Assembly (NCBI RefSeq): GCF_000145295.1
Contig: NC_014408.1
Span: 1,020,001-1,052,000 of the forward strand
Direction of reading: 5' to 3'
Source: Methanothermobacter marburgensis str. Marburg
GTDB lineage: Archaea > Methanobacteriota > Methanobacteria > Methanobacteriales > Methanothermobacteraceae
Length of the DNA: 32,000 bases
How positions within the stretch are numbered: the stretch's first letter is position 1; each line of letters begins with the position of its first letter. The notes under the pieces were generated by a model. The model saw nothing but the letters and a program-made list of their open reading frames with translations, was not told the DNA's origin and searched no databases. The position numbers were made by a program, and so were the translations under genes. This document shows, piece by piece, positions 3,587-11,281 of this stretch.

Positions 3587-3865
3587 TCAATGATATAGCC
3601 GAGAAAGGAGAAGTACACCTACTAGGAGCATTATAACAAAAAGTGTTTCGATCACACCTTTTTCCTCGCCTCTGAACACCTTCTTCGACAGAAAATAGAT
3701 TAGCAAAAACATATTTCCCAGTAAAAGACACGTTAACAATATAATAGGTAGTTCAGGCCTAGTAGGCAGTAAAGCCAACCTACTACCCGTAAACAGTAAA
3801 ACCAACAAAATTGTAAAACACGATAACGACCCCAAAAAATAAAAAAGCTTAGATGTATGCTGCAT
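3587..3865 (-). CDS. Small 3-TM membrane protein, type-2 partner (immunity-like) of orphan cassette 3849..4256
   Basis: 92-aa ORF. Its ATG overlaps the last codons of the cassette and is preceded by GAGGTG with a 5-nt spacer. It shares NMFLLIY.L.K...E......G with 4387..4629. Confidence 0.6.
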   Translation of the reverse strand: MQHTSKLFYFLGSLSCFTILLVLLFTGSRLALLPTRPELPIILLTCLLLGNMFLLIYFLSKKVFRGEEKGVIETLFVIMLLVGVLLLSRLYH

Positions 3866-4256
3866 CCTCCCACCTCAAACTACCATCAGGATTCTTCGGT
3901 ATTTCAATATAGTGTATACAATGATCCTCACCAACATAACTTCTCAACTCATAACCATAAATCCAGGTACGATGAATCGAAATATACTTCCAATATTCTT
4001 GGGGAAGATAATGAGTCCGTATCCTTAAAATCAAATCACCTTCAGCCACTATCACACTTATAAAACCCAAAGGACCCATAACAGCAGTGACACCGGCAAC
4101 AGTTGCAATATCTAATATACCATGGAAAACATCCTCTAGAATGCATGTTTGGTGTTCTATGATGAATTTTTTGATATCGTCTGTGATGTTTAGGAGGCCT
4201 GTGTAGGCTATTATTGTTGCATATGCTGCCATGTTGAGTCCTATAAATCCCTCCAC
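3849..4256 (-). CDS. Orphan C-terminal cassette D (5'-truncated copy of the 837-aa gene tail; variable window type 2); possibly a silent cassette
   Basis: 135 aa from GTG 4256, with no SD. 4141..4244 is the constant 5' block, 4011..4139 the variable window and 3852..4010 the constant tail. 3843..4013 matches 5513..5683 with 1 mismatch. Confidence 0.55.
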   Translation of the reverse strand: MEGFIGLNMAAYATIIAYTGLLNITDDIKKFIIEHQTCILEDVFHGILDIATVAGVTAVMGPLGFISVIVAEGDLILRIRTHYLPQEYWKYISIHRTWIYGYELRSYVGEDHCIHYIEIPKNPDGSLRWEDAAYI

Positions 4257-4386
4257 AAGAGCATAATTGAGGATATCCTGGAATGTAAATCCACATAGAC
4301 TTCAACATTATCATGAGTTGTGATATTTTTTATAGGTTTTTTCTAAGATTTTCCAGTTTTTTTGGGCGTGGGGGGCTGCTTTTCTT

Positions 4387-4629
4387 TTATGCAAGGCCAA
4401 AGAAGCCTATAATTACAAGCAAGCCTCCAAGTGCTCTGACAGTTTCATTTTCAGTTTTTCCCAACTCATCCTTGCCTAATAGGTAAATTAAGAGAAACAT
4501 GTTCACTATGTAAATGGAATAGACAATTAATTTGCTGATAATATAGGGGAAACGGAGACTAACCACAACCAATGCAGCAGTAAAATAAGAAAGGAAATAA
4601 CTAAAATAAAAAATGTACTTTACCATCAT
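4387..4629 (-). CDS. Small 3-TM membrane protein, type-2 partner (immunity-like) of orphan cassette 4643..5146
   Basis: 80-aa ORF. AGGAGG lies 5 nt before the ATGATG start, which is 13 nt after the cassette stop. It is a paralogue of 3587..3865. Confidence 0.65.
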   Translation of the reverse strand: MMVKYIFYFSYFLSYFTAALVVVSLRFPYIISKLIVYSIYIVNMFLLIYLLGKDELGKTENETVRALGGLLVIIGFFGLA

Positions 4630-4642
4630 ATCATCCTCCTAA

Positions 4643-5146
4643 TCAGATATACACTGCTTCATCCCATCTTAAAGTACCATCTGGGTTCTTTGGGATTTCA
4701 ATGTAGTGTATGCAATGGTCTTCGCCAACATAAATTTTAAGTTCATAACCATGCCGCCAAGTTCTATGGTAAGAAACATATTTCCAATATTCAGTTGGAA
4801 GATAATTCGTTCTTACATTCACAATTAAATCACCTTCTGCTAATAGTAGAGAAGCAATCGAAAAAATACCACTTGCCAAGGTGACACCTTCACTACTAAG
4901 CTCTTTTAAACTCCATATAAAAAGAATCCCATCTATAATGTCCCCTCCAATGCATGTTTGGTGTTCTATGATGAATTTTTTGATATCGTCTGTGATGTTT
5001 AGGAGGCCTGTGTAGGCTATTATTGTTGCATATGCTGCCATGTTGAGTCCTATGAGGCTGGCCCTACATAATCGAAAAAGAGGGTTTAGGATGGAAAGGT
5101 ACATGGAGGTTACAAAGCCCAATATAAGCCTTCTTAGTACTATCAT
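4643..5146 (-). CDS. Orphan C-terminal cassette C (variable window type 2) with a decayed, frameshifted 5' remnant
   Basis: 167-aa ORF. The constant block is 4950..5053, the variable window 4805..4948 (48 codons) and the constant tail 4646..4804. Upstream, 5100..5180 is homologous to 5985..6065 but carries a 1-nt insertion, so the first ~10 codons are out of the ancestral frame. Confidence 0.5.
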   Translation of the reverse strand: MIVLRRLILGFVTSMYLSILNPLFRLCRASLIGLNMAAYATIIAYTGLLNITDDIKKFIIEHQTCIGGDIIDGILFIWSLKELSSEGVTLASGIFSIASLLLAEGDLIVNVRTNYLPTEYWKYVSYHRTWRHGYELKIYVGEDHCIHYIEIPKNPDGTLRWDEAVYI

Positions 5147-5161
5147 CTAAACCTTCAAGGT

Positions 5162-5407
5162 TTACAGTGCTGTTGCCATCCAGGAAAAGGACGAGCCTAC
5201 TACAAAGGTTATGGCCATTAACCATCGTATTTCATCCTCTCTTTCCTTCAATTTGAATTGGAGCCAGAATAGAAGAGAAAAAATGAACAAGCCTAAAAGG
5301 TCTGCTATTGGAATCAAACCATTAAAATGTTTAATTCCAATGGAAAATAAAATAATATCGAGACAAAGAAGGGAATAAAGTATATCGAGCAAAGATTCAT
5401 AATCCAA
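5162..5407 (-). CDS. Small 3-TM membrane protein, type-1 partner (immunity-like)
   Basis: 81-aa ORF with a TTG start preceded by GGAGGTG (7-nt spacer). It shares LDYES and L(K/E)E(K/R)E.EIRW.M....VG with 8512..8787. Its last ~7 codons run into a remnant of cassette sequence. Confidence 0.6.
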   Translation of the reverse strand: MDYESLLDILYSLLCLDIILFSIGIKHFNGLIPIADLLGLFIFSLLFWLQFKLKEREDEIRWLMAITFVVGSSFSWMATAL

Positions 5408-5519
5408 GAAAAGACACCTCCTATATCATCCACTTAGACTACCCCATTAGGGTTCGTTTGAGAATTTTAGCCCCATATAGTTGCCGCGGATCGTAAAATA
5501 CGCCAAAAACTGAAAAAGC

Positions 5520-6167
5520 TTAGATGTATACTGCATCCTCCCACCTCAAACTACCATCAGGATTCTTCGGTATTTCAATATAGTGTATACAATGATCCTC
5601 ACCAACATAACTTCTCAACTCATAACCATAAATCCAGGTACGATGAATCGAAATATACTTCCAATATTCTTGGGGAAGATAATGATCTCTAAATGTAAGT
5701 ATGCCATCACCTATCCGCATACACCATCCAATTGGTTGAAATATTTCACCACCATACCTTACTAACACATATGCCAAAACCTGGATCAAACAGTGAGCAG
5801 TATCTTCTGAGATGTATGTTTGGTGTTCTATGATGAATTTTTTGATATCGTCTGTGATGTTTAGGAGGCCTGTGTAGGCTATTATTGTTGCATATGCTGC
5901 CATGTTGAGTCCTATAAATCCCTCCACAAGAGCATAATTGAGGATATCAACAAAAGCCATCGGACCTTCCAGGGCAATGTACATGGAGATTACAAGGCCA
6001 ATATAAGCCTTCTTAATACTATCATCTAAACCTTCAAGGTTTACTGTGCCATTACCATCCAAGAGCGAATCTAACTTTTCAGAGAATATTATAGTCTGGC
6101 CAAGTTCCCGAGCCCATTCTGTCTGTTGGTGGTAGTAGCAGTATGCTCCCATGAAAGCATAGATCAT
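5520..6167 (-). CDS. Orphan C-terminal cassette B (variable window type 1); the reading frame and homology continue upstream to 6300 without a start codon
   Basis: 215 aa from ATG 6167. The constant block is 5812..5915, the variable window 5682..5810 and the tail 5523..5681. The whole 5520..6300 stretch aligns to 8768..9551. Confidence 0.55.
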   Translation of the reverse strand: MIYAFMGAYCYYHQQTEWARELGQTIIFSEKLDSLLDGNGTVNLEGLDDSIKKAYIGLVISMYIALEGPMAFVDILNYALVEGFIGLNMAAYATIIAYTGLLNITDDIKKFIIEHQTYISEDTAHCLIQVLAYVLVRYGGEIFQPIGWCMRIGDGILTFRDHYLPQEYWKYISIHRTWIYGYELRSYVGEDHCIHYIEIPKNPDGSLRWEDAVYI

Positions 6168-6300
6168 GTCCCTTACTATCCCTGTTACATGGTCTATGAT
6201 GAGGTATCTTCCCTGCCCGTCACTGATAAGCGTGTAATTCTCGCTTTCGAGGATGTTTAGTGACCCGCCGTTGAGGAGTGTTAGGCCTATTCCTGTTGTG
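5520..6300 (-). repeat. 781-bp duplicate of the 3' end of the 837-aa gene (partner copy 8768..9551)
   Basis: Read by eye, 5916..6300 is almost identical to 9164..9551. The copies diverge in the variable window and homology ends abruptly at 6300/9551. Confidence 0.9.
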
Positions 6301-6327
6301 TGGAGGTTTTGATCCTGGGATTTGGGT

Positions 6328-7548
6328 TTATGGTTGATTTTTTTGGATGGTGAGTTCTTTCAGGGCTTTTTTGGCTTTTTTGTATTCTGGGTCTATTTTC
6401 AGGGATTTTTCGTAGCATTTTAGTGCTTCTTTGTGTTTGCCGAGTTTTTGTAGTGTTTTTCCTTGCATGTACCATAGTGTTTTGTTTTGCGGGTTTAGTT
6501 TGAGGGCTTTCTTGTAGCATTTCAGGGATTCCTCTGGTTCTTTGAGGTCTTCTAGGATTATGCCTTTCCATTTCCATGCATCAGCGAATTCTGGGTTTAT
6601 TTCAAGGGCTTTTTGAAAGCATTCCAGCGCATCCTCATATTTTCCAAGTTCTTCGAGGACTAGTCCTTTGTTGTTCCATGTTTTGTCGTCTTCTGGATCT
6701 ATTTCCAGGGCTTTTTCATAGCATTCCAGTGCCTCCTCATATCTCCCAAGTTCACTGAGGACTACTCCTTTATTGTTCCATGCTTCTGCAAGTTTGGGGT
6801 TTATCTGTAATGCTTTTTCATAGCATTCTAGTGACTCATCATATCTCCCAAGTTCATTGAAAACTAGTCCTTTGTTGTTCCAAGCTTTATCATCTTGTGG
6901 ATTTAATTGGAGAACTTTGTCATAACATTTTAATGCTTCTTCATATATCTTAAGGTTATGTAATGTTATTCCTTTAGTTCCCCAAGCTCTATAATTTTTT
7001 GGATTTAGCTCTATGGCTTTTTCGAAACATTTTAGTGCCTTTTTGTATTTTTTAAGGTAAATTAGAACGGAGCCTTTATTGTACCATGCATCTGCAAGTT
7101 TGGGGTTTATCTGTAATGCTTTTTCATAGCATTCTAGTGCCTCATCATATCTCCCAAGTTCTTTGAGGACTAGTGCTTTATTGTTCCATGCTCCTGCATA
7201 CTTTGGATTTATTTTTAGTGCTTTTTCATAGCATTCTAGTGCCTCATCATATCTCCCAAGTTCTTTGAGGACTAGTCCTTTGTTGTTCCATGCTTCTGCA
7301 AGTTTTGGATTGTTTTTGAGGATTTTTTCATAGCATTCTAAGGCTTTCTCTGGTCTTTTGAGTTTTAGTAGTGTTATTGCATTGTAGTGGAGGATTTCTG
7401 GGTTGTTTGGTCTTGCTTTGAGGGCTTTCCTGAATTCTTTGAGGGCTTCTTTGTATTTTCCCTGTTTTAGGCTTGATCGGCCCCCAGCAAGGTGCCATCC
7501 AGCCTTTCCCTCGGCTATCCAATCCTTTATTTTCTTAAGGGGGTTCAT
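6328..7548 (-). CDS. Tetratricopeptide (TPR) repeat protein, ~11 tandem 34-aa repeats; translationally coupled partner of orphan cassette E
   Basis: The repeated consensus is A(W)xNKGxxLxxLGRYDEALECYEKALxINP. Adjacent 102-bp DNA units are nearly identical (for example 7118..7190 vs 7220..7292). Its ATG overlaps the stop of 7545..8495 (ATGA). Confidence 0.85.
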   Translation of the reverse strand: MNPLKKIKDWIAEGKAGWHLAGGRSSLKQGKYKEALKEFRKALKARPNNPEILHYNAITLLKLKRPEKALECYEKILKNNPKLAEAWNNKGLVLKELGRYDEALECYEKALKINPKYAGAWNNKALVLKELGRYDEALECYEKALQINPKLADAWYNKGSVLIYLKKYKKALKCFEKAIELNPKNYRAWGTKGITLHNLKIYEEALKCYDKVLQLNPQDDKAWNNKGLVFNELGRYDESLECYEKALQINPKLAEAWNNKGVVLSELGRYEEALECYEKALEIDPEDDKTWNNKGLVLEELGKYEDALECFQKALEINPEFADAWKWKGIILEDLKEPEESLKCYKKALKLNPQNKTLWYMQGKTLQKLGKHKEALKCYEKSLKIDPEYKKAKKALKELTIQKNQP

Positions 7549-8495
7549 CCTCCAGCCTCTCTCAACTTCTTTTCTAGGTAGTTTTTGAATCCTAGTATGC
7601 AGGCTTCTATTGCTTCACGATTCTCATAGGCCAATAGGCTTCCAATAGCCATCCCAGTGCCTATTATAGTGCCTCCATGTTTTATGGCGCCCACAACATC
7701 CCCATCCTTTAAAGCCTCCTTGAACAGATCCCATTCATCCATCATGAGTTTACCTAAATTATTTATAGCCCTTCCTATATCGTCGGGATCGCCACCAACA
7801 CCACCACTGCTAATCACCCTTAGAGTATCTACGGCTTCTCTATACTCATTTATCGCTTGACTCCATTCGTCAGACTGTCTTGATAGTATTTCAAGATAGT
7901 TTTGTATTGGTTGTGTGTCTCCTGTTAGTAGTGTGTAGGCGATGAATGTTGGCAGACCAGCGGGTGAGAGTAACATCATGGCATCTTCGATGTATGGGAG
8001 CCACTCAGGATGTTCGATGAGGATATAAGCGACTATTGCAACAACTATTCCTATGCCAGCTGTCGCCGGCGCTGACAAGGCTCCTGCTTCGAGGATGGCG
8101 ACTTCAGCTCCTCCTTCGAAGCCGACGACTTCAGCTCCTGAAACACCAGCAAATCCAATGAACTTCCACAAACCGGTCTCATTCAGTAGTTCTTTTGCGA
8201 GGTTGGCTGCCCATTCTGTCTGCAGGTGGCTGAAACAATATGCCCCCATAACATTCTTAAAGATATTGACATCCCTCACTATCCCTGTTGCAGTGTCGAT
8301 GATCAGGTAGTCATTATCATAGTTTATTATGGTGTAGTTCCCAGCTTTTGTAATATTTAGTTTTTCTCCGTTCAGGAGCCTGTATGCTATGCTTGTGATC
8401 GCAGCACCTTCCATGATATCCCCTATATTGTCGAGGCTTCCATTGTATGGGAATAGGCGTTGCATTGAACTCTGAGGGGTTTGATGTCCCGACAA
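7545..8495 (-). CDS. Orphan cassette E: junction motif homologous to the 837-aa protein, followed by an unrelated glycine-zipper-rich hydrophobic C-terminal domain
   Basis: 316-aa ORF (TTG 8495, or ATG 8465; no SD). Residues ~36-96 (8208..8390) align to 9362..9541 of the full-length gene: LLNG..LNI...NYT.I....YLIID..TGIVRD....MGAYC..H.QTEWA. Downstream it is unrelated to the other cassettes (GFAGVSGAEVVGFEGGAEV..., GGTIIGTGMAIGSLLA). Confidence 0.55.
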   Translation of the reverse strand: MSGHQTPQSSMQRLFPYNGSLDNIGDIMEGAAITSIAYRLLNGEKLNITKAGNYTIINYDNDYLIIDTATGIVRDVNIFKNVMGAYCFSHLQTEWAANLAKELLNETGLWKFIGFAGVSGAEVVGFEGGAEVAILEAGALSAPATAGIGIVVAIVAYILIEHPEWLPYIEDAMMLLSPAGLPTFIAYTLLTGDTQPIQNYLEILSRQSDEWSQAINEYREAVDTLRVISSGGVGGDPDDIGRAINNLGKLMMDEWDLFKEALKDGDVVGAIKHGGTIIGTGMAIGSLLAYENREAIEACILGFKNYLEKKLREAGG

Positions 8496-8511
8496 TAATT
8501 AAATAGCCCTG

Positions 8512-8787
8512 TTATACCCCTGGAGATGCAATTAAACCCACTATAAGGAGCATTACCATCATCCATCTTATTTCATACTCTTTTTCCTTCAACTCGTAGT
8601 AGAGCCAGCATAAAAGGAGAAGAGTGAACAAGCCTAAAGGGGCTGCTATTAGGGACAAAACATCACAATGATACTTAAGCGCAAGAATACATAGGAACAT
8701 AACTATGCAGATAAGAGGATAAGCCCTCTTATACCAAGATTCATAATCCAATAAGATCCCCTCCACTTTAGATATATACTGCTTCAT
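8512..8787 (-). CDS. Small 3-TM membrane protein, type-1 partner (immunity-like) of the full-length 837-aa protein
   Basis: 91-aa ORF from an ATG inside the upstream gene. A more likely start is TTG 8751, preceded by GGAGGGG (6-nt spacer), which matches the start context of paralogue 5162..5407. Confidence 0.6.
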   Translation of the reverse strand: MKQYISKVEGILLDYESWYKRAYPLICIVMFLCILALKYHCDVLSLIAAPLGLFTLLLLCWLYYELKEKEYEIRWMMVMLLIVGLIASPGV

Positions 8788-9551
8788 CCCACCTCAAACT
8801 ACCATCAGGATTCTTCGGTATTTCAATATAGTGTATACAATGATCCTCACCAACATAACATCTCAACTCATAACCATCGTACCAGGAACGATGATACGAT
8901 ATATACTTCCAATACTCTTTTGGAAGATAATAATCTCTAAAGCTCAATATTTTATCACCAAACCACATACAAAACCCAATTGACCCTAATATCGCCCCAG
9001 CACCTCCTTTTGACACGTATCCAAAAACAGTAAGTAAAATATCTATAATGTCTTTTGGAATGTATGTTTGATGTTCTATGATAAATTCTTTGATATCGTC
9101 TGTGATGTTTAGGAGGCCTGTGTAGGCTATTATTGTTGCATATGCTGCCATGTTGAGTCCTATAAGTCCCTGACCCACAAGAGCATAATTGAGGATATCA
9201 ACGAAAGCCATTGGACCTTCCAGGGCAATGTACATGGAGATTACAAGGCCAATATAGGCCTTCTTGATACTATCATCTAAACCTTCAAGGTTTACTGTGC
9301 CATTACCATCCAAGAGCGAATCTAACTTTTCAGAGAATATTATGGCTTGGCCAAGTTCCCGGGCCCATTCTGTCTGTTGGTGGTAGTAGCAGTATGCTCC
9401 CATGAAAGCATAGATCATGTCCCTTACTATCCCTGTTACATGGTCTATGATGAGGTATCTTCCCTGCCCGTCACTGATAAGCGTGTAATTCTCGCTTTCG
9501 AGGATGTTTAGTGACCCGCCGTTGAGGAGTGTTAGGCCTATTCCTGTTGTG
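8768..9551 (-). repeat. 784-bp master copy of the segment duplicated at 5520..6300
   Basis: See the entry for 5520..6300. The two copies differ in length by one codon. Confidence 0.9.
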
Positions 9552-11281
9552 GGCGCGCTTGTGGGGTCTGATCCTGGGAAGAGGGCCTCCATCACATAGT
9601 ATTCTATTGGATTTATAGCTGATGTTCTCGCATAATTGAATGCTTTAATGTTTTCAGGTGTGCCTTCTGCTTTCACGGCCATGTTGTGGTTGCATTCGAG
9701 GCTTATCCATGTTCCGAGGGCGTGGTCTCCTGCTGAGACCATCACTGGCATGGTCCTGGTCCATGTTACATTATAGCGCGTGGCTGCTTCTTCTGCGATG
9801 AGATCGTGGAGGTATATTACTTCAAGGCCTGTTAGGAATGTTCCGTAGGCTGCCTTTAATGGTCCGGGTTCGTATGTCCTGTTTAGCCACTTTTGTAATG
9901 TCTGGTTTGTTATCTTCCCTGTGGCGAGGGTGTAGGTTATGATGGCGTCGTAGTTGCTAGCCTCCCAGATGAGAGTGTCGTTTATTATGATATTGGGTCC
10001 TGTTTCTCCTGGTGGGTGTATGTATTGGCCGTTTGTGTAGAGTAGGAGGAGTGTTCTTGTTGATTTGTTCCCTGGGAATGTTATATTGGCTATTGTCACC
10101 TTTTCCTCGCCGGGATACTCCACACTGACCTGTAAAGGGTCTATGCACTTGTTATAGTTTGTGAGTATGAATGTCTTTTCTGCCTGGGTTAAATTGAAGT
10201 TGTTGAGATATTCATTCACTTGAGGTTCTGCTCCGAGTTTTGTGTAAATTTCTATGAGTCTGTTCAGGCCAGCTATGACTTGCCAGACTATTTCTCTTTG
10301 ACTCTGGCTGTTAGCCTGGTAGAATGGGTTAGTGACCTCGGCTAGTTTGTATGCTATGCCATCCTCCACAAGGAATATTGTTTCATTGAATAGGCCCGAA
10401 GCTATAGCCCCTATACTAATCCATTTAACCGTGTCATTGAGCGGAATTTTAAATGTTAAATTTAGGGGCTTCCCAGAGGATGTTGCCGTGGAATTAACAT
10501 GGACCGTTGCAAGCATAACCTCCAATGTCATAGTCTTCGTGTCTGTTATGCCATAGGCTTGGATTGTTAGGGTTGCTTTGTAGGTTCCTGGTTTGTAGGC
10601 GTGTACTGGATTCTTCTGGGTGCTTGTGCTTTGGTCTCCGAAGTCCCATTTGTAGTATTGTATTGTCCCTGTACTTTTATCCTGGAACTGGACATTATAG
10701 CCTTGTATTGTGTAGGTGTAGTCTGCCCTTGGCCTTGTCAGGGTTCCGGCCTTACCTGTAACATATTTTACTGTTACATGGTTTGGTAGTCTTCCTGTGC
10801 TGTTGTAGAAGTTTATTATCCTTGCATTGGCATATATTAGGCTTTCTGGGCGGATTTGTCCGATGGCTGTGCTGGCATAATTCGGCGACCTCCCATAGGA
10901 TTCCATGAAAGCCTTAACATTCTTTGCCACCTGCAGGTATCCTGCTTTTTGGAGTGTTCCTGTTCCTGTTCCACTTGGACTGGGCGGGGAGGCCATACTA
11001 TTGAATGACAAGCCAACTCTCCTAGCCTGATCGAGGTTTATGATGGTTGTGGATGAGGCGTAGAGGTAGTCGTCTGCCGACACATTCTTACCGTTAATCA
11101 CAACCTGTGATGGTATTTTTTCATGTTGTGCGGTGTAATTTCCGATCAGCTTTGAAGCGTCACAAATCTCATTATAGGATAAACTCACAGCTGAAGAACT
11201 GCCCAGAAAACAGAAAAAGGACAGGATCGCCAGAAAAAACAACAACCTCCTCACAGCCACCACCATAATATGATAACACAT
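8768..11281 (-). CDS. Full-length secreted wall-binding protein: signal peptide, 2 pseudomurein-binding-like repeats, PKD domain, ~300-aa unknown region, junction motif, variable C-terminal module (type 1)
   Basis: 837-aa ORF. The signal-like N-terminus is (MCYHI)MVVAVRRLLFFLAILSFFCFLGSSSA. The PKD signature is WDFGDQSTSTQKNPVHAYKPGTYKATLTI. The segments KIPSQVVINGKNVSADDYLY and GRLPNHVTV resemble pseudomurein-binding repeats (from memory). About 15 N-x-S/T sequons are present. The variable window is 8930..9058. Confidence 0.85.
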   Translation of the reverse strand: MCYHIMVVAVRRLLFFLAILSFFCFLGSSSAVSLSYNEICDASKLIGNYTAQHEKIPSQVVINGKNVSADDYLYASSTTIINLDQARRVGLSFNSMASPPSPSGTGTGTLQKAGYLQVAKNVKAFMESYGRSPNYASTAIGQIRPESLIYANARIINFYNSTGRLPNHVTVKYVTGKAGTLTRPRADYTYTIQGYNVQFQDKSTGTIQYYKWDFGDQSTSTQKNPVHAYKPGTYKATLTIQAYGITDTKTMTLEVMLATVHVNSTATSSGKPLNLTFKIPLNDTVKWISIGAIASGLFNETIFLVEDGIAYKLAEVTNPFYQANSQSQREIVWQVIAGLNRLIEIYTKLGAEPQVNEYLNNFNLTQAEKTFILTNYNKCIDPLQVSVEYPGEEKVTIANITFPGNKSTRTLLLLYTNGQYIHPPGETGPNIIINDTLIWEASNYDAIITYTLATGKITNQTLQKWLNRTYEPGPLKAAYGTFLTGLEVIYLHDLIAEEAATRYNVTWTRTMPVMVSAGDHALGTWISLECNHNMAVKAEGTPENIKAFNYARTSAINPIEYYVMEALFPGSDPTSAPTTGIGLTLLNGGSLNILESENYTLISDGQGRYLIIDHVTGIVRDMIYAFMGAYCYYHQQTEWARELGQAIIFSEKLDSLLDGNGTVNLEGLDDSIKKAYIGLVISMYIALEGPMAFVDILNYALVGQGLIGLNMAAYATIIAYTGLLNITDDIKEFIIEHQTYIPKDIIDILLTVFGYVSKGGAGAILGSIGFCMWFGDKILSFRDYYLPKEYWKYISYHRSWYDGYELRCYVGEDHCIHYIEIPKNPDGSLRWDEAVYI

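Follow-up and report, generated by a model that had tools for sequence, protein, structure and literature searches.

A stretch of 32,000 nucleotides (nt) from the genome of Methanothermobacter marburgensis str. Marburg (contig NC_014408.1, positions 1,020,001 to 1,052,000; hereafter the window) contains a gene for a large surface protein (the main gene) and, downstream of it, an array of gene fragments (orphan cassettes) that encode alternative C-terminal ends. The end of the main gene (tip A) and three of those in the array (tips B, C and D) are related to each other, and each is followed by a partner gene for a small protein with three transmembrane (TM) segments. On balance, this is probably a polymorphic-toxin-like (or kin-recognition-like) cassette locus of Methanothermobacter. 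According to a preliminary description of the sequence, the subtype of a short variable window within the tip matches the family of the partner, as in specificity pairs; this match is present in the Marburg cassettes and is not retained in sister strains.

Organization of the locus and the main surface protein

All genes of interest, and all features listed below, are on the minus strand (according to the list of open reading frames (ORFs) of the window). Their order is main gene, pA, orphan E, TPR gene, orphan B, pB, orphan C, pC, orphan D, pD. The main gene (8768..11281) encodes a protein of 837 amino acids (aa) with a signal-like hydrophobic N-terminus, three pseudomurein-binding repeats and a PKD domain, followed by the conserved body and the A-type tip. 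The Pfam matches are PMBR (5e-27) and PKD_4 (1.5e-12), and PMBR (PF09373), at 93.1 bits against a cut-off of 24.9, covers three stretches, which identifies the product as a pseudomurein-binding surface protein. Hence, the main protein has the composition that Zhang et al. (2012) describe for polymorphic toxins, being a secreted multidomain protein with trafficking or adhesion modules at the N-terminus.

For comparison, 44 loci (denoted L) were collected from metagenome-assembled genomes, metagenomes and finished genomes, the latter being reached by a profile search with partners of family F1 (see below). The profile of alignment A1 gave no match when run against genome contigs, and a tail-centred alignment then yielded four Methanobacterium-type loci. 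All family members come from Methanobacteriales, with 12 proteins (denoted P) in a search of 5.8 billion sequences and 39 clusters among 1.84 billion representatives.

Junction motif and alternative C-termini

The conserved body ends (GAYCxxHxQTEWA) at the motif TGxVxD...GxxC...T, which in the main protein has the form TGIVRD..GAYCYYHQQTEWA. This junction motif, TGIVRD..MGAYCYYHQQTEWA, lies at 9362..9436, with copies at 6111-6185 (orphan B) and 8208-8288 (orphan E). The residues T, G, D, G, C and T are invariant (alignment A5), and beyond them the homologues diverge: proteins P0013-P0019 have the body in common up to the junction, past which their C-termini, hydrophobic or Gly-rich, fall into at least five unrelated kinds. 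The sharp change at the junction from a common body to alternative, unrelated ends is another feature shared with polymorphic toxins.

The downstream gene depends on the C-terminal class. The tip is followed by a gene for a 3-TM protein of 79-100 aa, the E-type C-terminus by a TPR gene, and the class ending in 'LLxNGLREYEQWY' by a gene for a multi-TM protein of 113-121 aa. This specificity holds between the C-terminal classes, while within the tip class the adjacency of variable window and partner family is not conserved. In more distant relatives, the same tip is found on Beta_helix, Big_5 and CHB_HEX_C (chitobiase-type) stalks. Moreover, in several strains a secreted protein with a Peptidase_C39 domain, encoded a few kb upstream of the main locus (L003:4460-5860, L042:2428-3825, L013:235-937), ends in the hydrophobic helix and conserved tail of the tips, the next gene encoding a 4-TM protein of 151 aa.

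Variable windows and constant flanks of the tips

The tip alignment confirms that the four tips are related, since identical constant segments and near-identical tails surround variable windows of 43-48 codons. The translations of the variable windows agree with the preliminary description, their coordinates being 8930..9058 (A) and 5682-5810 (B, within orphan B) for subtype I, and 4805-4948 (C, within orphan C) and 4011-4139 (D, within orphan D) for subtype II. The motifs quoted there for the windows and partners are all present, although 'EIRW.M....VG' was printed one dot short.

The constant segment upstream of the variable window, R1 (GLNMAAYATIIAYTGLLNITDDIKxFIIEHQT; repeat family D3), occupies 9059..9196 in tip A and recurs at 5811-5948 (B), 4949-5086 (C) and 4140-4277 (D). 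The conserved tail R2 (YLPxEYWKY..YH..YVGEDHCIHYIEIPKNPDG..YI; repeat family D2) occupies 8768..8929 in tip A, with copies at 5520-5681 (B), 4643-4804 (C) and 3849-4010 (D). The DNA of cassettes B and D is 100% identical over roughly 135 nt on the upstream side of the variable window and roughly 160 nt on its downstream side, but within it the identity is only 28-55%. To judge from the DNA, R1 acts as the upstream and R2 as the downstream flank of recombination.

Variable window A is predicted to form two helices separated by a Gly-rich turn, the first short and the second longer and hydrophobic. In the AlphaFold2 model of tip A there are helices at residues 39-52 and 56-80, with low confidence; in general, the models predict helices for the constant segment and the variable window, whereas the tail forms a small beta unit with per-residue confidence (pLDDT) of 70-89. 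The hydrophobicity peaks of the tip segments are moderate (1.5-2.1, compared to 2.2-2.9 in the partners), as expected where a segment must first be exported. The tail contains invariant H, D, C and H residues, and basic residues (R..K..K..H.R) follow the last hydrophobic helix of the tip.

Partner genes

Three strongly hydrophobic segments are present in all four partners, as was noted previously. Two of the partners belong to family F1: pA (8512..8787; 91 aa), whose start codon lies within the last 20 nt of the tip gene, with GAGGTG at -8, and pB (5162..5407; 81 aa), with a TTG start and GGAGGTG at -14. The other two are pC (4387..4629; 80 aa, family F2b), with GGAGG at -10, and pD (3587..3865; 92 aa, family F2a), whose start codon lies within the last 17 nt of the D tip, with GGAGG at -5. 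In general, GGAGG or GAGGTG is found 4-14 nt before the start of every partner gene and of the TPR gene.

The relatedness of pA and pB, proposed in the preliminary description, is well supported (42% identity, one phmmer cluster, F1). The one proposed for pC and pD is limited to TM2 and the next loop (hhalign probability 90%, 31 columns). Codons of their common NMFLLIY motif differ at synonymous sites, which indicates conservation at the protein level and not recent copying. No similarity between the F1 and F2 partners was detectable by hhalign.

The first hydrophobic segment of D-type partners is encoded in two different reading frames among strains (3587-3865 compared to L017:1743-2021 and L040:12890-13174), the difference arising from compensating single-base indels in T runs; both versions are hydrophobic. 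In strain MT-2 (AP017647.1), the normal start of the D-type partner has been lost by a 2-nt deletion.

Orphan cassettes

In orphan E (7545..8495), the same junction motif leads into a C-terminus that is hydrophobic, rich in Gly and Ala, and unrelated to tips A to D; one related to that of orphan E is found in the full-length protein P0013. No ribosome-binding site was found upstream of orphan E. Its partner, the TPR gene (6328..7548; 406 aa; Pfam TPR_1 1e-125), overlaps it by 4 nt and has GGAGG at -5. The pair of E and TPR genes is also present in L006, L007, L035 and L036. Within the TPR gene, seven 102-nt (34-codon) units with 60-68% identity form repeat family D1 (6374-7387).

The length of upstream homology to the main gene shrinks through orphans B, C and D. 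Orphan B (5520..6167) is identical to P0002 and retains 300 nt of such homology (repeat D4, 97%); no ribosome-binding site was seen upstream of it. Between its tail and pB lies the 5' remnant of an F2-type partner gene (MQYTSKLFQFLAYFT...stop; 5449..5536), which is evidence that the tail of the B cassette was once joined to a D-type partner. In orphan C (4643-5146, or 4643-5185 with its upstream homology) this homology is represented by repeat D5 at 5115-5185, which has a frameshift and extends as far as the 3' end of pB; orphan D occupies 3849-4256, or 3849-4277 with the whole of R1. As the upstream homology of orphan C (frameshifted DGNSTVNLEGLDDSTKKAYIGL, 5115-5190) overlaps the 3' end of pB, the last pB codons come from cassette-C sequence.

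Inspection of the sequence shows ribosome-binding sites only before partner genes, the orphan tips having none. Taken together, repeat families D2-D5, tips lacking initiation signals, and partners with predicted ribosome-binding sites correspond to orphan cassettes of polymorphic toxin systems. At the same time, several orphans and partners contain frameshifts.

Other arrangements were observed in the related loci. In L003 (10001-14566), five identical 865-bp cassettes, each composed of a P0005-type tip and pB, stand in tandem at 2x contig coverage, being either a real amplification or an assembler loop. In L006 (1-900) and L001 (11935-13758), the D+pD cassette is directly followed by a promoter region and the start of a second main gene; such a tandem two-locus arrangement could be ancestral to the layouts of Marburg and of the sister strain KEPCO-1 (see below), both arising by deletion. 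In L006 (3489-4236), the P0005-type tip is followed by a gene for a 138-aa 4-TM protein, then by a remnant duplicate of the tail end and an F1 partner; the 4-TM gene has the appearance of an additional partner gene, inserted or recombined.

Just downstream of the Marburg locus there is a 66-nt tandem repeat (2216-2413; two perfect copies and a third at 62%), which overlaps the ORF at 2368-2745 at its 3' end. No tRNA gene was found beside the locus.

Exchange of tips and partners between sister strains

The flanks of the locus in Methanothermobacter sp. KEPCO-1 (finished genome CP042937.1) are 99.3-99.6% identical to those of Marburg, but the main gene of KEPCO-1 carries the C tip, followed by pC. 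The C tip is thus an orphan in Marburg and a main tip in KEPCO-1, while the A tip, located on the main gene in Marburg, is an orphan in L006, L007, L037 and L038. Such interchange of main and orphan C-termini between strains by recombination is also characteristic of polymorphic toxins. The retention of partners is reciprocal: Marburg, with main tip A, keeps pC, and KEPCO-1, with main tip C, keeps a 99% identical copy of pA (L035:10001-10276). The B variable window is present in KEPCO-1, whereas the A window and pB are lost.

The adjacency of variable windows and partners also differs. In KEPCO-1, an orphan with the D window (subtype II) precedes pA (F1), and a D-type partner comes after an orphan with the B window (subtype I). 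The latter combination recurs in MT-2, where the window is B-like, and in L017, L018 and L019, the partner being F2a. A D window adjoins an F1 partner (pA, pB or P0009-type) in KEPCO-1, L020, L036 and L044; in particular, it precedes pB in L020, and L036 has both D+pB and D+pA. The exceptions in L017 and L020 were considered as possible assembly chimeras, as the 135/160-nt repeats exceed the typical k-mer; this was rejected, since like swaps occur in KEPCO-1 and MT-2, whose genomes are finished.

When KEPCO-1 was compared to the window by blastn, the recombination joints fell at 9041 (on the R1 side) and at 8931 and 4014 (on the R2 side), which mark the edges of the variable windows within the two flanks. 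All mismatches of subtype and family are confined to orphan cassettes, and, as all partner genes remain in the same genome, immunity in trans would still work.

Co-variation of variable windows and partner families

Agreement of the four Marburg cassettes carries little weight by itself, as the probability that two 2+2 splits of four items agree is 1/3, so that the observed split is no better than chance. In the 44 loci, each tip with a tail was therefore paired with the multi-TM ORF that comes next. Among the first 24 unique pairs, window and partner are associated (Fisher p=0.006, Mantel r=0.34). Once the finished genomes were included and near-identical variants were merged, the counts of subtype by family were [[6,4],[3,9]] (p=0.19); restricted to the B and D windows, they were [[1,3],[3,4]] (p=1.0). 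In partial Mantel tests on the first 24 pairs, the tail correlates with the partner at r=0.32, and the window at r=0.16 (p=0.011 after controlling for the tail). Hence, the co-variation noticed in the preliminary description holds for the four cassettes here but not for the larger sample, and for two of the four, B and D, window and partner assort independently.

The behavior of particular tips is not uniform. F1 genes are found downstream of A, of A-like P0007-type tips and of P0009-type tips, and F2/F3-type partners, which share the motif N-x-x-L-x-x-Y-[LF]-L-x-K in TM2, follow C and the divergent subtype-II tips (L002, L008, L022, L023, L026, L032). A-pA and C-pC, the main-gene pairs, are separated in no locus examined. 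The P0005-type window is followed by pB (F1) in L003 and L015, and by the unrelated 138-aa 4-TM gene, a tail remnant and an F1 gene in L006, L007, L013, L014, L020, L031 and L036.

The strictest form of the specificity-pair idea states that the 43-48-residue window is the specificity determinant, that subtype I is recognized in the membrane only by F1 and subtype II only by F2, and that selection keeps the pairs. It is consistent with the agreement of all four cassettes here, with the invariable A-pA and C-pC linkage, with the occurrence of divergent subtype-II tips exclusively beside F2/F3-type partners sharing the TM2 motif, and with the residual window-partner correlation; precedents exist in IdsD-IdsE (PMC4471559) and in CDI (contact-dependent growth inhibition) ionophores with their CdiI proteins (PMC11630599). 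It is contradicted by B windows beside F2a (KEPCO-1, MT-2, L017), by D windows beside F1 partners in the four loci named above, by the B window of KEPCO-1, which has no pB, by the stronger correlation of the partner with the adjacent tail, and by the non-significant merged table. As the mismatches all fall in orphans, they weaken this strict form without refuting it, and we consider it unlikely. Given the swaps in KEPCO-1, MT-2, L020 and L036, the earlier use of the co-variation as an argument for the window being the specificity determinant has no support; window-specific recognition inside the membrane is possible, but the co-variation does not demonstrate it. As recombination scrambles the silent copies, the match of A/B versus C/D describes the state of one strain, reflecting cassette ancestry and linkage and not a conserved rule.

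The same data bear on the suggestion that the small downstream ORFs are functionally unrelated to the tips and merely physically linked to them in a repeatedly duplicated DNA unit. Indeed, the partner tracks the adjacent tail DNA, and simple recombination separates windows from partners. Still, linkage alone hardly accounts for start codons overlapping the last codons of the tip, for conserved ribosome-binding sites, or for protein motifs conserved despite synonymous changes. Moreover, even distant relatives from Methanobacterium, with less than 50% identity, have a small 3-TM gene after the tip, and the other C-terminal classes have different, equally constant neighbors. We therefore regard functional independence of tips and partners as very improbable.

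Interpretation of the locus

In the polymorphic-toxin-like interpretation, the secreted main protein would bind pseudomurein, its conserved body ending at the junction motif, and the exchangeable, moderately hydrophobic tip beyond the junction would be membrane-active, damaging or marking the membrane of neighboring cells to which it is delivered. The small 3-TM protein, translationally coupled to the tip, would neutralize or recognize it inside the membrane. The downstream tips (orphans B, C and D, and the unrelated E) would be silent spares, each with its own expressed partner gene, and the partners of the orphans may serve as an immunity repertoire. Homologous recombination in the body, R1 and R2 would move a spare tip onto the main gene, and the same recombination would reshuffle the adjacency of windows and partners in the silent copies. 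A more specific version, in which the wall-anchored protein inserts an exchangeable helical unit into the membrane of a neighbor, and the 3-TM partner reads the variable helix as self or neutralizes it, is offered only tentatively.

The broader frame of a toxin/immunity or receptor/ligand pair, suggested in the preliminary description, is thus retained on grounds other than co-variation, namely the polymorphic C-terminus, the class-specific neighbor, the silent orphan array, the ribosome-binding sites of the partners, and the exchange between main and orphan positions.

Several observations weigh against this interpretation. No match to a toxin, pore-former or immunity family was found in Pfam, NCBIfam, PADLOC, PHROGs, a PDB sequence search or Foldseek, and there is no evident machinery for delivery. 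The tips have in common a conserved tail at the extreme C-terminus, unlike classical polymorphic toxins, where the very end varies. The structural models have overall pLDDT of 56 and 58, that is, low confidence, and the family, with its 39 clusters, is tiny. The P0005-type window on the main gene precedes pB in L003 and the unrelated 138-aa 4-TM protein in L006. Finally, a Sec-exported protein with C-terminal hydrophobic helices and a basic stretch after them may simply be anchored in the membrane, its tail reaching the cytoplasm.

The last point leads to the main competing explanation, according to which the locus is no conflict system, the tip serves a family of adhesin-like, wall-associated surface proteins as membrane anchor and cytoplasmic tail at their C-terminus, the 3-TM protein is an accessory subunit or assembly factor, and the downstream copies are decaying duplicates homogenized by gene conversion. 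It accommodates the basic residues past the last helix (as a cytoplasmic tail), the conserved tail with invariant H, D, C and H, the same helix and tail at the ends of C39-peptidase-domain and beta-helix adhesin-like proteins, the negative toxin domain searches, and the frameshifted orphans and partners. What it leaves unexplained is the alternation of unrelated C-termini after one sharp junction, each class having its own downstream gene, as well as the intact frames and strong ribosome-binding sites in partners of silent tips, and the difference in main tip between close strains that each keep the partner of the other. We consider this explanation, taken as a whole, unlikely.

If the helix-insertion version of the polymorphic-toxin-like interpretation is true, the locus would represent contact-dependent antagonism or kin recognition in archaea, with specificity residing in a swappable transmembrane helix and with a repertoire edited by recombination at identical flanks. 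The locus is found in a model, cultivable methanogen, and the nearly identical Marburg and KEPCO-1 differ in the main tip while each retains the partner of the other, which makes a direct competition or immunity experiment possible. The recombination acts at the sub-domain level, identical flanks around a window of 130 nt uncoupling the presumed specificity segment from the neighboring gene; adjacency in a single genome is thus a poor guide to specificity.

Comparison with known systems

In pore-forming colicins of the A and E1 types, a hydrophobic helical hairpin is recognized in the membrane by a 3-4-TM immunity protein encoded by an adjacent gene. The genes studied here are not plasmid-borne, the colicin pore-forming domain has no Pfam match in them, and no PDB sequence or fold match was obtained; we know of no logic of an orphan array in colicins.

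CDI and Rhs loci (Poole et al. 2011, PMC3150448; Koskiniemi et al. 2014, PMC3967940) resemble the Methanothermobacter locus in having a large surface protein with a conserved body, a short junction motif, a polymorphic C-terminus and a small downstream gene, tandem C-terminal fragments without initiation signals whose partners have a ribosome-binding site and a start, and an orphan of one strain serving as the main tip of another. In particular, CDI/Rhs orphan modules have graded upstream homology and tips without initiation signals, and an orphan may be loaded onto the main gene elsewhere (PMC3150448). The likeness is one of architecture, toxicity being only presumed here. The differences are that the host is an archaeon with a pseudomurein wall, and that the marks of CDI (CdiB transporter, TPS/FHA repeats, VENN junction) were not found in the main protein by Pfam, its junction motif being a different one, nor did the Pfam scan give a match to YD/RHS repeats; the DPxGL autoproteolytic junction is also lacking. 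Furthermore, the variable part here is an internal window of 43-48 residues with conserved DNA on both sides, which allows sub-domain shuffling to separate it from the partner gene. Judging by the absence of their defining domains, the locus lies outside the CDI (ionophores included), Rhs and colicin families, and outside that of the IdsD-IdsE pair considered below.

CDI ionophores combine a membrane-spanning helical toxin end with a small integral membrane CdiI, and variation is located in helices predicted to touch the partner (PMC11630599). A helical tip, here a predicted one, and a small membrane partner are thus common to both systems (Halvorsen et al. 2024). However, ionophore ends show no sequence or fold match to the tips considered here, and each forms a bundle of five helices at the very C-terminus, entry being assigned to a separate domain, while here a conserved beta tail follows the variable helix. 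In IdsD-IdsE of Proteus mirabilis, variable stretches in predicted membrane-spanning subdomains mediate allele-specific binding (Cardarelli et al. 2015, PMC4471559). This adjacent-encoded pair with recognition inside the membrane provides a non-lethal, 'identity' alternative to toxin/immunity; unlike the present system, IdsD is delivered by a type VI secretion system, its sequence is unrelated, and there is no cassette array.

For archaea, antagonism and self/non-self recognition have been predicted, with no experimental characterization yet (PMC8416519), and that paper also refers to predicted archaeal polymorphic toxin systems (Makarova et al. 2019, as cited there). We found no paper that ties pseudomurein-binding proteins to polymorphic toxins, and Zhang et al. 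(2012) mention neither pseudomurein nor Methanothermobacter. The nearest described archaeal analogue in organization is VARTIG of Thermococcales, in which the C-terminal part of a surface protein is hypervariable and recombining, the downstream genes are variable, and the organization is polymorphic-toxin-like (PMC8416519). VARTIG varies an Ig domain and is restricted to Thermococcales, whereas the family described here combines PMBR/PKD stalks with a hydrophobic tip and 3-TM partners and is restricted to Methanobacteriales.

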